64,000 bases of DNA, from positions 5,443-69,442 of the forward strand of contig FR890814.1 of the NCBI GenBank assembly GCA_000433035.1, written 5' to 3'. Source of the DNA: Staphylococcus sp. CAG:324 (GTDB lineage Bacteria > Bacillota_I > Bacilli_A > ML615J-28 > CAG-313). The translations under genes and the position numbers were made by a program. Positions 13,167 to 45,259 of the stretch are shown here, in pieces; position 1 is the stretch's first letter, and each line of letters begins with the position of its first letter. The notes below the pieces were generated by a model. The model had not been told where the DNA came from and searched no databases. It was given only the letters and a program-made list of their open reading frames with translations.

Positions 13167-13251
13167 ATAAAATTTAACACATTTTGTCGAAAACGTTTTC
13201 TGATAATTTTTCTTTACTTTTTTTTTTTAATATATTATAATATTAGAGTAA

Positions 13252-13320
13252 AAGTCATATATTTCTGATAATATGGTTCAGAAGTCTCTACATTATCACC
13301 GTAAATGATAATACTATGGT
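13252..13320 (+). ncRNA. Purine riboswitch of the guanine class (C at the discriminator position).
   Basis: UCAUAUA...UCUGA-UAAUAUGGU-UCAGA...AGUCUCUACA...UUAUCA-CCGUAAA-UGAUAA...UAC-UAUGG matches the P1/P2/P3 layout of the xpt G-box. An upstream TATAAT lies at 13236-13241. Confidence 0.6.
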
Positions 13321-13394
13321 AACAATTGAATAATTGCTTAAAAACCGCTGTTATGGCTTTTTACAACAAAAAATTTTTAAGGAGGACTTCTTTA

Positions 13395-35949: not shown

Positions 35950-36207
35950 ATGATGTTTCAATTTTTAAAAAAGAGCGGACAAAGAAATAATAACTATACT
36001 CCATCTTATCCTAGTCCCTACCAAAGTCAGCCATATCAACAGCCTAACTATATGCAACCAAATACCAATCAATATGATTTAAATATGATTCATACAGAAA
36101 TCAATGAACTCAAAAGAGAAATTAATGATTTATATCAACGCATAAATCGACTTGAAAGCTTTTTAGGAGTACGAGATAATAATCAACCTAATTCAAATTT
36201 TTCATAA
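35950..36207 (+). CDS. Q/N/P/Y-rich small protein with a C-terminal coiled coil. It could be a spore-coat-like low-complexity protein.
   Basis: YPSPYQSQPYQQPNYMQPNTNQ followed by INELKREINDLYQRINRLESF. Confidence 0.35.
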   Translation: MMFQFLKKSGQRNNNYTPSYPSPYQSQPYQQPNYMQPNTNQYDLNMIHTEINELKREINDLYQRINRLESFLGVRDNNQPNSNFS

Positions 36208-36753: not shown

Positions 36754-36801
36754 ATTTAAACCAAACTCTCAAAAAGGTTCTAGGAGGAACCTTTTTTGAT
36801 T
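36720..36801. repeat. Left copy of an 82-bp direct repeat, comprising the last 34 nt of the yjcZ-like CDS plus its bidirectional terminator (AAAAAGGTTC-taggag-GAACCTTTTT).
   Basis: It matches 45378-45459 at 81 of 82 positions. Confidence 0.8.
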
Positions 36802-38537
36802 TATATTTTATCACTAATCTTTTTTAACATATTGTTAAAAGTAGAATTTTTTCGTTCTCTTAATTGTTTTATAGTTCCATACTCAATAATTTTACCATCA
36901 TTCATTACAATTACTTTGTCACAATTTAAAATATTATAAATACGATGAGAAGTAATCAACATTATTTTATCATTCATTTTATATAATTTACTTAATATAT
37001 CTTTTTCATTTGTTACATCTAGTGCTGAGGTGATTTCATCTAATAAAAATAATTTAGCATTTTTGTATATTGCATTTGCAATATTAATACGTTGAATTTC
37101 ACCACCTGATAAATTATCCTCATAATTTGAAATTTTTGTTTTATCTTTTTCTGGCAAACTTTCAATTAAATTATTTAATTTAGCCTCTTCTATACTTTTT
37201 TGATAATTTTTTTCATCAAATTCAAGTGGATAAATAATATTATCCCTTATACTAACATTAAATAATTTTAAATCTTGTTGTACATATGCAATATTATTTC
37301 TCAAAGAAAATAAACTAATTTTATTTAAATCTATATTATTAATAAGAATTTGTCCTTCATTAGGAATTATGATTCTAGTTATTAAATCAAAAAGTGTTGT
37401 TTTCCCTCCTCCAGACATTCCTACTATACCTAATTTTTCTCCTTTTTCAACTTTAAAATTTAATTTTTTTACTTCGAACAATCCATCACCATATTTAAAA
37501 CTTACATCAATAAATTCAATACTATAGATATCGTCTATATTAATACCATCATATATATTTGTTTCTGGTTCTATGCTATAAATTTCATCCAGCTTTTCCA
37601 TAGAATTTTTTATAATTTTTGAAGAAATATTTACATTTAATAGCACTCTAAAAGAGCTATAAATTTTAGGTATTATTGTTAAAAAAGATATTAATATACC
37701 AGTTGTTATAGTACTAAAATCTTTTATAATATACCATATTCCAATAAAAATTATTACAATATACATTATATTTATTATTAAATCTCCCATTATAAATCTA
37801 TTTAAGCTATGAGTAATTGAAGTCTTTTTTTTATGCTTATAAAGGCTATCAAGCCATAAATTAAATTTTTCATTTTCCTTTTGGTGGCCATTTGTTATTT
37901 TAATTTTTTTTATTCTTTTGCATGAAGTCAAAATTAATTCTTGACCACTTTCTAAAATCTCAATATATTCTTTATCATTTTTTTTACTAATCTTGGAAAT
38001 AAATTTAGCTAAAAAATAAAATAGAGGAAATAAAGCAAAAATAATTATTGCAAATTTTTTATCAATTTTAATCATTGTTATAACAACAATTAATAAAAAT
38101 ATACTTTCAGAAAAAAAGCCAACAATATCATTTACAAAATAAACTTCTCCAATCTTCCCTGTTTCTCTAGTTATTCTTGACATAACCTGAGAATCACTAT
38201 ATTTATTTATTTTTAAATATTTTGCATTTAATACACACTCAAAAGCAGTCCTTCTCAATGATGAAGTAATATAATTACCAAGCTTAGTTGATAAAAATGT
38301 TTTAAAAATATCTAATAATAATAACGATAATGATATACTAATCATTTTAATTATTATTATTATTAACAAATTTACATCTTTATTAGGAACTACTTTATCT
38401 ATGATATCTACTATTATTAATGAATTCTTTAATTTTAAATAGGAAATTGCTATCATTAAAATTATTAATATTATTATTATAAATATTTGTTTTTTTGTAC
38501 AATTTACAAGTATTTTATGTGTATTAATTGTTTTCAT
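36801..38537 (-). CDS. ABC transporter with fused permease and ATPase domains (lasso peptide D-type exporter; RiPP export and immunity).
   Basis: N-terminal 6-TM domain. Walker A GMSGGGKTT, signature LSGGE and Walker B LLDEITSALD. Its stop codon abuts the direct repeat. Confidence 0.75.
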   Translation of the reverse strand: MKTINTHKILVNCTKKQIFIIIILIILMIAISYLKLKNSLIIVDIIDKVVPNKDVNLLIIIIIKMISISLSLLLLDIFKTFLSTKLGNYITSSLRRTAFECVLNAKYLKINKYSDSQVMSRITRETGKIGEVYFVNDIVGFFSESIFLLIVVITMIKIDKKFAIIIFALFPLFYFLAKFISKISKKNDKEYIEILESGQELILTSCKRIKKIKITNGHQKENEKFNLWLDSLYKHKKKTSITHSLNRFIMGDLIINIMYIVIIFIGIWYIIKDFSTITTGILISFLTIIPKIYSSFRVLLNVNISSKIIKNSMEKLDEIYSIEPETNIYDGINIDDIYSIEFIDVSFKYGDGLFEVKKLNFKVEKGEKLGIVGMSGGGKTTLFDLITRIIIPNEGQILINNIDLNKISLFSLRNNIAYVQQDLKLFNVSIRDNIIYPLEFDEKNYQKSIEEAKLNNLIESLPEKDKTKISNYEDNLSGGEIQRINIANAIYKNAKLFLLDEITSALDVTNEKDILSKLYKMNDKIMLITSHRIYNILNCDKVIVMNDGKIIEYGTIKQLRERKNSTFNNMLKKISDKI

Positions 38538-39852: not shown

Positions 39853-39865
39853 TTAAAACTATAAG

Positions 39866-39884
39866 GGAGGATTAATACCTCCCA
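39866..39884 (-). promoter_or_regulatory. GC-rich intercistronic stem-loop GGGAGG-uauuaau-CCUCCC between the precursor and rSAM genes.
   Basis: 6-bp G/C stem in otherwise ~20 % GC DNA. Only a weak U-tract follows, suggesting a partial terminator or processing/stability element of the kind common after RiPP precursor genes. Confidence 0.4.
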
Positions 39885-39902: not shown

Positions 39903-40016
39903 TTAAGCACATTTATCATAACCATAACCATCATCATTATCTTTTCCAGTTGAACCAGTTAATTCAAACATATCACCTAAAATAATATATGATGGCTTTT
40001 CATAATTATTATTCAT
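39903..40016 (-). CDS. Lasso peptide precursor of 37 aa: MNNNYEKPSYIILGDMFELTG | STGKDNDDGYGYDKCA.
   Basis: RBS AAAGGAGGTG lies 7 nt upstream. The leader matches YxxPxLx3Gx5Tx (Y5, P8, G14, T20; only L is replaced by Y), with the penultimate leader residue Thr. The core begins with Ser, has Asp at positions 7 and 8 for isopeptide formation, and has bulky Tyr in the tail. This is the only sizeable intergenic gap in the operon. Confidence 0.6.
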   Translation of the reverse strand: MNNNYEKPSYIILGDMFELTGSTGKDNDDGYGYDKCA

Positions 40017-40031
40017 TATTGACACCTCCTT

Positions 40032-41468
40032 TCAGACTTTTAATACGGGAAACCTTGATATTTCAATAAATTGCTTTTTTATTATATTAGAATCAGTAAT
40101 AACTATTTCATCTATTTCTACCCATGAATGAAATTCGAATAAATTAGTAATATGATACGAAGATTTACCAATTACGACTTGAGATGGAATTCCAATAGTA
40201 ATTAGTGCTGTACACAAAGATATTGATCTTTCTAAGCATAGCATACCTTCATTATTTTCTTTACCAATCTTACGTAAAATCGGAATAATTTTACTAACAT
40301 AATTACAAAAATCAATACTAGAATAGTTTAAAGTGTTTTGTTCAATTAAATATTTATTTTTATGAAACAAAGTATTTATTAGTTTTATAGCATAAGAAAC
40401 CCCTTTTTTATGAATTAATGAAATAGATTTTATATAATTTCTAGTCATATGTTCAAAATCCGTAGAATTTATTTCAAAAGAATTTTTGACCAATTCTTCG
40501 TTATACAAAAGAGTCATTAATTTATCATAACAAAATGTTTCATTTATATCCATATATAATTGGTTAACATTACATACATTTGGATAATTAACTATATATT
40601 TATCAACATTATTAGCTAAATTAATTAACAAATTTATTTTCTTGTTTAAAAATGGACTCAATATATTTGTTTGATAATTTAAAATATTTTTTATAAAATT
40701 ATAATTATTCAATAATTCTATTTGATATATATTATTTTTTTTAGTTCCTAAAATTATAACTTTACTTAATTTTATAGTATTTTGATATTGTATATTTTGG
40801 AAATAATATTTTTTACTTTTTGTTAATAAAACACTATCAAAATCTATTGGTTGCTTATCTAAACTTTTTTTTATTCCAATACCAACATTAATTCCTTGAC
40901 AATTCAATTGTTTATCTATTATACAAAAAACATCATCACTCAAAATTTCATAATTATATTTATTATTTAATTCTATAGATATTGATGTCTTACCATACCC
41001 AGACTTTCCCAACAACGCTACTCCTTCATTTGTTGTTTTATTAACCAATAATGCTCCATGAAAAATTATTTTGTTATTTTCTAAAAACGCAATGGATAAT
41101 GGATCTAAAAAATACTGAAAAAACATATTTCTTTTATTATATATTTTTTTTATATAGAAAATAAACTTTTTTTTCAAAAATAACCATTTTGCATAACTTC
41201 CATCTTTATAAAAAATATTATATTCTTGATTGTTTTTATCATAAATAAAACTACCAATTAATAATTCATATTTAATTCCTTTCTTATGAATTTTGGGTAT
41301 ATAATTATTATCAAAATTATATTCAAATATGTAACTTTCCTTATTTGCTATATGATTATTTTTACAATTTGAACCTAAAATATTGAATATAAAATTTGTA
41401 TTTTCTAAATCATTCGTTTTTATTTCAAAATTTTCACCAAATACATTAAATTTTAGTATATCATTCAT
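40032..41468 (-). CDS. Fusion protein with an N-terminal HPr-kinase-like (HprK C-terminal domain) kinase and a C-terminal lasso B2 transglutaminase-like leader peptidase.
   Basis: The kinase part reads FHGALLV...GVALLGKSGYGKTSISIEL...ILSDDVFCI, which follows the HprK P-loop pattern HG.lv..G.G.L..G.SG.GKSE.aLEL....L..DD. The peptidase part reads EGMLCLERSISLCTALITIGIPSQVVIGKSS...FEFHSWVEIDEIVITD, giving a Cys-His-Asp triad as in McjB-type B2. Confidence 0.6.
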   Translation of the reverse strand: MNDILKFNVFGENFEIKTNDLENTNFIFNILGSNCKNNHIANKESYIFEYNFDNNYIPKIHKKGIKYELLIGSFIYDKNNQEYNIFYKDGSYAKWLFLKKKFIFYIKKIYNKRNMFFQYFLDPLSIAFLENNKIIFHGALLVNKTTNEGVALLGKSGYGKTSISIELNNKYNYEILSDDVFCIIDKQLNCQGINVGIGIKKSLDKQPIDFDSVLLTKSKKYYFQNIQYQNTIKLSKVIILGTKKNNIYQIELLNNYNFIKNILNYQTNILSPFLNKKINLLINLANNVDKYIVNYPNVCNVNQLYMDINETFCYDKLMTLLYNEELVKNSFEINSTDFEHMTRNYIKSISLIHKKGVSYAIKLINTLFHKNKYLIEQNTLNYSSIDFCNYVSKIIPILRKIGKENNEGMLCLERSISLCTALITIGIPSQVVIGKSSYHITNLFEFHSWVEIDEIVITDSNIIKKQFIEISRFPVLKV

Positions 41469-44782: not shown

Positions 44783-45259
44783 TTATAATAAAAATTCACA
44801 TAATGTTTGATTATTATAATCCCCATAATAATAATCTATCAATTCTAAAGATTTTCCATTTATTTTAAATAACTCTAAATTAATATTTTTTTGTGAAATA
44901 TTTTTAAAAAATTCTATATCTTTTTTTACTATTTTTTGAATTTCTAATTGTTTTATATATGAATTTATAGTAAACTCACTTAAACTTTTAGACAAATTTA
45001 AACTTTCAATTTCATAACAATATTCCATTGAATCATAATTTATTGGCATACTATTGGTAACAAATATATTATTATTATCATTTCTAATTATTATTGGGTA
45101 ATTGCAATTATAATTATCTATAAAATTAATAAATAAAATATAATTAATAAAAGTGATTTGGTTATCAAAAAAGCAATTGATTATTAATTTTTCATTTTTT
45201 AAAATAATTTGTATTTTAATATCTCTTACTTTAGTATTAATAATTTTTTTAGATTCCAT
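44783..45259 (-). CDS. Hypothetical protein of 158 aa, the first gene of the island operon.
   Basis: Intact ORF with a GGAGG RBS. Confidence 0.35.
   Translation of the reverse strand: MESKKIINTKVRDIKIQIILKNEKLIINCFFDNQITFINYILFINFIDNYNCNYPIIIRNDNNNIFVTNSMPINYDSMEYCYEIESLNLSKSLSEFTINSYIKQLEIQKIVKKDIEFFKNISQKNINLELFKINGKSLELIDYYYGDYNNQTLCEFLL

Follow-up and report, generated by a model that had tools for sequence, protein, structure and literature searches.

A probable lasso peptide precursor with a single cysteine, encoded beside a radical SAM/SPASM enzyme in an uncultured gut bacterium

The 64,000-nucleotide stretch of contig FR890814.1 analysed here (hereafter, the window) comes from "Staphylococcus sp. 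CAG:324", an uncultured but widespread gut bacterium with a reduced genome, for which metagenome-assembled genome records also give the names Acholeplasmatales and Bacilli bacterium. Within it lies a small open reading frame (ORF) that is very probably a genuine lasso peptide precursor gene. It belongs to a tightly packed minus-strand block that runs, in order, from a 158-residue ORF through an NTP_transf_5 protein, a cyclase (C), a PqqD-like protein (B1), a fusion of a kinase-like module with a leader peptidase (B2), the precursor (A) and a radical S-adenosylmethionine (rSAM)/SPASM enzyme to an ATP-binding cassette (ABC) exporter (Table 1).

The reverse complement of the precursor ORF translates, from an ATG at 40016-40014 to a TAA at 39905-39903, as MNNNYEKPSYIILGDMFELTGSTGKDNDDGYGYDKCA. 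Its leader, MNNNYEKPSYIILGDMFELTG, comprises residues 1-21 (39954-40016), and its core, STGKDNDDGYGYDKCA, comprises residues 22-37 (39906-39953). An earlier sequence-only reading of this DNA had placed the ORF correctly without naming its strand, which is minus. The Shine-Dalgarno sequence stands immediately 3′ of the stop codon of the upstream fusion gene. A GTG start at 40025, taken from a mechanical ORF list, was dismissed because it overlaps this ribosome-binding site, and the ATG is therefore the credible start; the plus-strand frame across the same interval was dismissed for its many stops. At least 1000 contigs carry the exact precursor, which corresponds to NCBI entry CDC70356.1 (annotated as "unknown"). 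A regular expression for the leader, [YF]xxPx5Gx5T[GA], has one match in the six frames of the window, as does the core motif, and a tblastn search of the window with the precursor peptide returned no second copy, the next match having an E-value of 0.19. The earlier statement that no second precursor is visible thus holds for the window.

Table 1. Features of the lasso peptide locus (coordinates are those of the window; core residues are numbered from the first residue after the leader).
Feature	Position	Strand	Basis or remark
Precursor gene A	39903-40016	minus	37 codons plus TAA; translation, homologs, codon comparison
Ser1 codon (TCA)	39951-39953	minus	Conserved in 22 of 22 precursors; no other hydroxyl residue is invariant across cores
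Asp5 codon	39939-39941	minus	Asp in all Cys-containing cores; Asn in rSAM-less clade
Asp7 and Asp8 codons	39930-39935	minus	Candidate isopeptide acceptors; kept in clades with and without rSAM
Asp13 codon	39915-39917	minus	Asp in all Cys-containing cores; Ser in rSAM-less clade
Cys15 codon (TGT)	39909-39911	minus	In every precursor with an adjacent rSAM gene; Leu in clusters without rSAM
Shine-Dalgarno GGAGGTG	40023-40029	minus	6 nt 5′ of the precursor ATG; sequence reading
Terminator-like hairpin, GGGAGG-TATTAAT-CCTCCC plus T-rich tail	39865-39883	minus	Between precursor and rSAM genes
Radical SAM/SPASM enzyme, 442 aa	38524-39852	minus	Pfam Radical_SAM; NCBIfam SPASM domain above cut-off
ABC exporter D, 578 aa, permease and ATPase fused	36801-38537	minus	ABC_membrane and ABC_tran; conserved in relatives
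Palindromic hairpin with T/A runs	36771-36796		Directly after the ABC gene
HPr-kinase-like/B2 fusion, 478 aa	40032-41468	minus	Transglut_core3 above cut-off; Hpr_kinase_C weak
B1, PqqD-like RiPP recognition element, 86 aa	41461-41721	minus	PF05402, 41 bits (cut-off 23.4)
C, asparagine-synthetase-like lasso cyclase, 518 aa	41702-43258	minus	PF00733, 61.6 bits (cut-off 21)
NTP_transf_5 nucleotidyltransferase-fold protein, 494 aa	43275-44759	minus	PF14907, 44.9 bits (cut-off 31.2)
ORF of 158 aa, first of the co-directional block	44783-45259	minus	Counterpart only in same-species contig L010

Conservation among relatives provides evidence that the precursor is real. Twenty-two precursors from metagenomes were aligned, their cores without gaps, and codons were compared at 11 loci and enzyme motifs in seven clusters. 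The leaders share the consensus [YF]-x-x-P-x-[YILV]-x3-G-x3-E-L-T-G, and the cores follow the nearly invariant pattern S-x-G-x-D-N-D-D-G-[WYFL]-G-x-D-x-C-[AGS]. Counting leader positions back from -1, P-14, G-8, E-4, L-3, T-2, G-1, S1, G3, N6 and G9 are invariant in all 22, and D5, D7, D8, G11, D13 and C15 are nearly so. Position 10 is occupied by W, Y, F or L and position 12 by Y, W, C, T or V, and the C-terminal ending of the cores is A, AR, GR or SR. The sequence-only reading had matched the leader to YxxPxLx3Gx5Tx with Tyr in place of Leu, and each of its positions was verified (Y5, P8, Y10, G14, T20 at -2 and G21 at -1, in leader numbering), as were the core residues that it named (S1, D7, D8, Y10, Y12, C15 and A16). 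Thirteen amino-acid columns are invariant over the 11 loci and all 13 show synonymous codon variation, with cluster enzymes that are only 25-40% identical to those of the window. Selection therefore acts on the peptide, and the ORF is therefore a real gene and a substrate of the flanking enzymes. Such extreme conservation of the core also hints at a specific ecological function.

The loci compared came from contigs that encode relatives of the rSAM enzyme and from a scan with the precursor profile. An ORF of 37-43 codons lies directly upstream of the rSAM gene in each syntenic, rSAM-bearing lasso cluster, and because the same small ORF holds the same position in at least nine independent clusters, it goes beyond chance. 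It was conceivable that the ORF is a chance frame or a decoy, with B1, B2 and C acting on a peptide encoded elsewhere, and the sequence-only reading had itself named a coincidental motif as one outcome that would undo its proposal. The small size of the ORF and the absence of a functional annotation would suit that explanation. It is nonetheless exceedingly improbable, and effectively ruled out, given the strong Shine-Dalgarno sequence, the single motif match in 64 kb, the conserved position between B2 and rSAM in at least nine clusters, and the purifying selection seen at the protein level. The proposal of a lasso precursor is upheld by the leader motif, kept in the 22 homologs, and by all three of the essential lasso enzymes, which flank the ORF and have intact motifs.

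Several other candidates were set aside during the comparison. The micro-variants P0053-P0065, which fall in the precursor's 90% cluster, occur on one or two contigs each, the main form being found on at least 1000, and were left unused as likely errors or rare alleles. Locus L108, from the metagenome scan, was a high-GC false positive, and a scan of viral contigs with the precursor profile gave no matches. A calcium-loop register of the EF-hand type (DxDxDG) for the DNDDG segment was rejected by eye, the spacing being one residue short and position 4 variable. As a separate observation, the Cys-less precursor P0050 recurs unaltered at L093 (2352-2465), where no lasso enzymes lie within 7 kb and the neighboring genes encode PadR, an ABC ATPase and a C39 peptidase.

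The proteins encoded around the precursor look, in every respect that can be checked on sequence, like those of a lasso peptide system. The cyclase has an SGGIDS PP-loop in its translation and scores 40 bits against the NCBIfam lasso cyclase model (cut-off 525), and B1 scores 25-27 bits against the NCBIfam lasso PqqD models (cut-offs 70-80). The fusion protein consists of an N-terminal HPr-kinase-like module of about 320 residues and a C-terminal B2 leader peptidase of about 150 residues. The B2 domain reaches 31.2 bits for PF13471 (Transglut_core3; cut-off 26) and 27.2 bits for the NCBIfam B2 model, under its cut-off of 33; its Cys411 and His447 are invariant in seven clusters, in which an acidic residue mostly fills the third position. 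The start of the ABC exporter gene overlaps the rSAM stop by 14 nucleotides, and the hairpin that follows the exporter is the probable terminator of the operon. The other hairpin, between precursor and rSAM, is one of three terminator-like sites in 10 kb where 0.7 would be expected, and its fold energy is by itself not significant (z = -1.2); it is possibly an attenuator that raises the ratio of precursor to enzyme transcripts.

Searches of Pfam, NCBIfam and PADLOC gave no match for the 158-residue ORF that opens the block, and the clusters of other relatives lack a counterpart. The ORF was compared with the C-terminal extension of the nucleotidyltransferase and found to be unrelated, and its place in the cluster is uncertain, a role in immunity being one example. 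PADLOC returned no defense-system match for four cluster proteins. Between 36000 and 46000 of the window, the GC content is 18-22% across the cluster as against 27-32% in its flanks, and the relatives L095, L096 and L099 sit near recombinases, transposases and Rad52; low GC and neighboring mobile genes are consistent with horizontal mobility.

The rSAM enzyme has its CxxxCxxC motif at C76/C80/C83 and seven SPASM cysteines (C306, C325, C367, C370, C376, C380 and C395), all of which are invariant in 28 sequences. Of the NCBIfam families, PapB ranks first for the enzyme of the window, and its model matches eight of the eight rSAM proteins of the family (lowest E-value, 1.8e-33); the models for the SCIFF maturase and for QhpD, which forms Cys-Asp/Glu links, likewise match all eight. 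By sequence and by fold, the closest solved protein is the thioether synthase CteB (5WGG/5WHY). The structure model of the enzyme has a predicted local distance difference test score (pLDDT) of 83, and in it the N-terminal domain is predicted to comprise three strands and one helix, which is shorter than a full recognition element for peptides that are made ribosomally and then post-translationally modified (RiPPs), or RRE. Because all scores lie far under the curated family cut-offs, the enzyme represents a new SPASM subfamily, whose reaction we infer from these relatives.

The enzyme is also rare. Among 5.8 billion proteins, a word-indexed search found six relatives above 200 bits, and among 1.84 billion representatives, an exhaustive search with a profile found about 6-11 clusters at 200-640 bits, followed by a continuum of 19,221 SPASM relatives. 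When species-representative genomes were scanned with the rSAM alignment, no close relative stood among the matches listed, the best of which (L011) is 30% identical and without lasso genes. A further homolog, at L001 (10001-11397; 46% identity), is truncated at the N-terminus so that it begins at CxxxCxxC, and is accompanied by an ABC fragment, a phage integrase and an ART-PolyVal protein but no lasso genes; the locus resembles what is left of a cluster on a mobile element.

A link between this enzyme and Cys15 is supported by a comparison of clusters with and without it. The rSAM gene is directly downstream of the precursor in nine of nine Cys-containing cluster types (the rSAM-bearing loci are window/L010, L002/3, L006, L007/8, L009/L099/L101, L096/97, L098, L104/105, L106 and L107). 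In L091 and L092, which are complete clusters, B1, the kinase-like protein, B2, C, the ABC transporter and NTP_transf_5 are all retained and an rSAM gene is missing. Their core, SNGKNNDDGYGWSVLA, carries the changes D5N, D13S and C15L and is unchanged at S1, G3, N6, D7, D8, G9, Y10 and G11. A neighbor-joining tree built from the cyclase, kinase-like and ABC proteins in concatenation pairs L091 with L098, a cluster that contains rSAM, as sisters (bootstrap 0.97), and these two together with the window stand apart from the rest (bootstrap 1.0). Because the rSAM-less L091 nests in this way among rSAM-containing clusters, the rSAM gene was most likely lost in its lineage, with constraint released on exactly three core residues. 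Cys15 is quite probably the target residue of the rSAM enzyme, as the sequence-only reading had suggested in noting a single Cys for it; nine Cys-containing cluster types with rSAM now stand against one Cys-less clade without. The co-variation also points to Asp13 or Asp5 as the partner of Cys15 or as a recognition determinant. That reading mentioned neither this pattern nor the fusion of B2 to an HPr-kinase-like module, nor the absence of a C-terminal Ser.

A subgroup formed by L007 (4277-4408, 5865-7001) and P0040 possesses a second Cys in place of Tyr12, with the core SGGSDNDDGWGCDSCAR, and a Methyltransf_21 gene follows its rSAM gene.

The kinase-like module raises a question of its own. 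His137, a Walker A motif at G154-K160 (GxSGxGK) and D178-D179 are invariant in seven clusters, with or without rSAM. Homology to HPr kinase is weakly supported: Hpr_kinase_C matches the fusion of the window at an E-value of 1.2e-3 and five of seven members at 0.01 or lower, and profile matches to HPr kinase structures range from 7e-4 to 9e-3. A phmmer search of the fusion against the PDB gave no match, a single-sequence structure model was too poor for use (pLDDT 33), and a homolog search with the fusion returned itself alone, AT-rich words having saturated the candidate list. In most relatives, the module is a separate gene, and in L099-L101 it is fused to the cyclase (749 residues); representative loci are 40032-41468 (minus) in the window, 8304-9744 in L002 and 7220-9469 in L099. 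Because the fusion partner shifts among clusters, the module is suggested to work inside the lasso synthetase complex. Characterised lasso kinases phosphorylate a C-terminal Ser that is common to all of their precursors (PMC8498205). None of the 22 cores here ends in such a Ser, and it is an idea that the kinase-like enzyme may phosphorylate the side chain of Ser1 instead. An intact kinase without its usual C-terminal Ser target is thus a second, directly testable question. NTP_transf_5 occurs in relatives both with and without rSAM. It adjoins PP-binding carrier proteins in L096 (1952-4167) and L098 (2579-3987, 11414-12898), and L098 also has an AMP-binding enzyme; these neighbors hint at an acylation branch that is absent from the window.

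Taken together, the ORF is best read as precursor A of a split-B lasso operon, and it is moderately likely that the product is a Ser1-Asp8 (or Asp7) lasso with Cys15 cross-linked by the rSAM enzyme. In such a pathway, the RRE of B1 would bind the leader through [YF]xxPx[YILV]x3Gx3ELTG, and the kinase-fused B2 cysteine protease would cleave after Thr(-2)-Gly(-1), so that Ser1 becomes the N-terminus. The cyclase would then join the amine of Ser1 to Asp8 (or Asp7) to give a ring of eight (or seven) residues, through which the tail of 8-9 residues would be threaded with the bulky residue 10 as plug. The PapB/CteB-like rSAM enzyme would act on Cys15, most probably by forming an intramolecular thioether to a carbon of either Asp13, a tail residue, or Asp5, a ring residue, and this link would provide a second covalent lock. 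The kinase-like and NTP_transf_5 enzymes may add further decoration, and the ABC transporter would export the product.

Several points weigh against this pathway. The evidence for it consists of the ORF, its conservation, the gene set, the enzyme motifs and the co-variation of three core residues with rSAM, and from these we infer the site of cleavage, the size of the ring, the threading, the thioether chemistry with its acceptor and the order in which the steps occur. The co-variation of Cys15, Asp5 and Asp13 with rSAM is a single evolutionary contrast, formed by one rSAM-less clade with two precursor sequences. The rSAM enzyme scores far under family cut-offs (81.3 versus 340 bits for PapB and 78.6 versus 425 for SCIFF), and chemistry among SPASM enzymes is unpredictable at such distances. 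Every Asp of the core is N-terminal to the Cys, the reverse of the order in PapB and SCIFF substrates, in which the Cys is N-terminal to its acceptor. The second-best fold match of the rSAM model, anSME (E = 5e-15), oxidises Cys to formylglycine. Asp7 and Asp8 cannot be separated with confidence: the exceptions to their conservation, D7G in P0046 and D8E in P0043, each occur on a single contig and may be errors, and, if genuine, they weakly favor Asp8. Finally, the pseudomycoidin pathway without its tailoring genes yields an unthreaded branched cycle (PMC6993621), and threading can therefore not be assumed.

With regard to the chemistry at Cys15, PapB requires hardly more than a Cys-Xn-Asp/Glu motif for the Cys-to-Asp link that it forms natively, and can act leaderless at C-termini (PMC12715619). 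Because its motif is minimal and C-terminal motifs are handled without a leader, a late-formed thioether directed at Cys15 is plausible. A Cys-Asp thioether could well be the product, although we hold this assignment tentatively and at slightly less than even strength. Cys15 could instead undergo a different reaction, such as conversion to formylglycine by an anSME-like activity, a sactionine link to an α-carbon of the backbone, or a link to the aromatic residue 10. In keeping with this, anSME also appears in the NCBIfam lists, sactipeptide and cyclophane synthases are among the weaker NCBIfam matches, and the C-[AGS]-R ending of many relatives bears a faint resemblance to the sulfatase motif C-x-[PA]-x-R. 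We regard these reactions as unlikely, as the three characterised Cys-thioether families (PapB, SCIFF/CteB and QhpD) are all among the five best matches of the rSAM enzyme of the window, each matching eight of eight members, and none of the alternatives predicts the loss of Asp5 and Asp13 together with Cys15 and rSAM. Moreover, an aromatic partner is not conserved, since residue 10 can be Leu and residue 12 Thr, Val or Cys, and the terminal Arg is absent in the clade of the window.

The ring and its plug can be considered in a similar manner. The sequence-only reading had called Ser1 an accepted but uncommon ring-forming N-terminus; it stands as the candidate, and its invariance goes beyond what a merely tolerated residue would show. 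Both Tyr10 and Tyr12 had been offered as plugs. Tyr10 is the better supported of the two, because position 12 tolerates small residues in relatives. The chaxapeptin-type ring is assigned to G1-D8, and lasso peptides of 15-16 residues with eight-residue rings, such as chaxapeptin, are threaded. In the 15-16-residue cores of chaxapeptin, GFGSKPLDSFGLNFF, and sungsanpin, GFGSKPIDSFGLSWL (PMC12427821), Gly3, Asp8, the aromatic residue 10, Gly11 and the hydrophobic residue 12 line up with S-T-G-K-D-N-D-D-G-Y-G-Y here. Unlike the present core, however, those peptides are actinobacterial and start with Gly, and they lack a Cys, an acidic ring and tailoring enzymes; the likeness can serve as a lead to the size of the ring and is no evidence of homology.

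It is also conceivable that the product is a branched-cyclic, unthreaded macrolactam to which the rSAM cross-link and the decorations lend rigidity. Pseudomycoidin, whose cluster is of the characterised type nearest to this one (with a kinase and an NTP transferase) and which is unthreaded when its tailoring genes are missing, makes this worth weighing, as do a short tail of 8-9 residues and a residue 12 that is small in some relatives. An unthreaded product is nevertheless improbable: residue 10 is always bulky and sits between the invariant Gly9 and the near-invariant Gly11, and short peptides with eight-residue rings, like chaxapeptin, thread.

Among known systems, the closest parallels are the pseudomycoidin (psm) and paeninodin (pade) clusters of class II lasso peptides from Bacillus and Paenibacillus, which share the split B1/B2, the asparagine-synthetase-like C and the ABC exporter, and whose products are phosphorylated or phosphoglycosylated. 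The catalytic D158/D159 of PsmK (PMC6993621) correspond to D178/D179 here, and those clusters have an "uncharacterised NTP transferase" gene; NTP_transf_5 is of the same Pfam family as such genes in Firmicutes lasso clusters. The likeness to PsmK and PsmN is drawn from descriptions rather than from direct alignment. In contrast to the window, psm and pade precursors end in Ser, their phosphorylation site, and their kinase is not fused to B2; the psm gene list and the pade cluster descriptions consulted contain no rSAM gene, which is present here.

A second set of parallels is found with PapB/freyrasin, CteB/SCIFF and QhpD, which share an rSAM/SPASM enzyme with CxxxCxxC and a seven-Cys SPASM domain; the PapB and CteB/SCIFF enzymes form thioethers from Cys to Asp or from Cys to Thr. 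The substrate here is Asp-rich, with its Cys near the C-terminus, where PapB can act leaderless (PMC12715619). Unlike ranthipeptides, however, the present system scores four to five times under the cut-offs, has one Cys rather than six, and places its candidate acceptors N-terminal to that Cys, where ranthipeptide precursors usually carry several Cys-Xn-Asp/Glu/Thr motifs; its rSAM gene lies inside a complete lasso operon, and the N-terminal domain of the enzyme is not a full RRE. If Cys15 is joined to Asp5 or Asp13, the second lock would follow the same logic as the disulfides of lasso classes I, III and IV and the second isopeptide of lariocidin B ("class V") (PMC9266682, PMC12427821), with an enzyme-installed thioether in place of either. 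Disulfide classes I, III and IV have two or four Cys; the core of the window has one, and therefore no intramolecular disulfide, and only the L007/P0040 subgroup has two.

Known tailoring of lasso peptides includes disulfides, phosphorylation, glycosylation, methylation, acetylation, hydroxylation, epimerisation, citrullination, succinimide formation and a second isopeptide (PMC9266682, PMC12427821), and the newest proposed class is that of lariocidin B (PMC12427821). Neither an rSAM nor a thioether modification figures in reviews of lasso modification up to 2022 and 2025 (PMC9266682, PMC12427821), and a search of full-text literature, with subscription-only papers outside its scope, found no report of rSAM-, SPASM- or thioether-modified lasso peptides or of the core motif. 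More speculative, and rather doubtful as a whole, is the idea of a new lasso topology in which the macrolactam would be locked by a Cys15-Asp ranthionine, either from ring to tail through Asp5 or as a tight tail loop through Asp13. In that scheme, the kinase and NTP transferase would decorate the side chain of Ser1, and the acidic ring segment D5-N6-D7-D8 might serve a conserved target or metal binding in the gut.

If true, a lasso peptide with an rSAM-made cross-link would unite two RiPP logics, those of lasso peptides and ranthipeptides. It would also offer a redox-stable substitute for disulfide locks in peptide engineering and a small, single-site substrate for the study of thioether-forming SPASM enzymes. 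The comparative data name the residues for mutation: Cys15, Asp13, Asp5 and Asp7/Asp8.

Two further features were observed elsewhere in the window. A purine riboswitch aptamer (RF00167, 76.8 bits) occupies 13235-13336 on the plus strand, just before a 528-residue ORF whose listed start, at 13326, overlaps the last bases of the aptamer. Another ORF, of 85 residues (35950-36207, plus strand), lies between the ribosomal protein S16 region and a UPF0223 gene; its product is rich in Q, N, P and Y and has a C-terminal segment that resembles a coiled coil.

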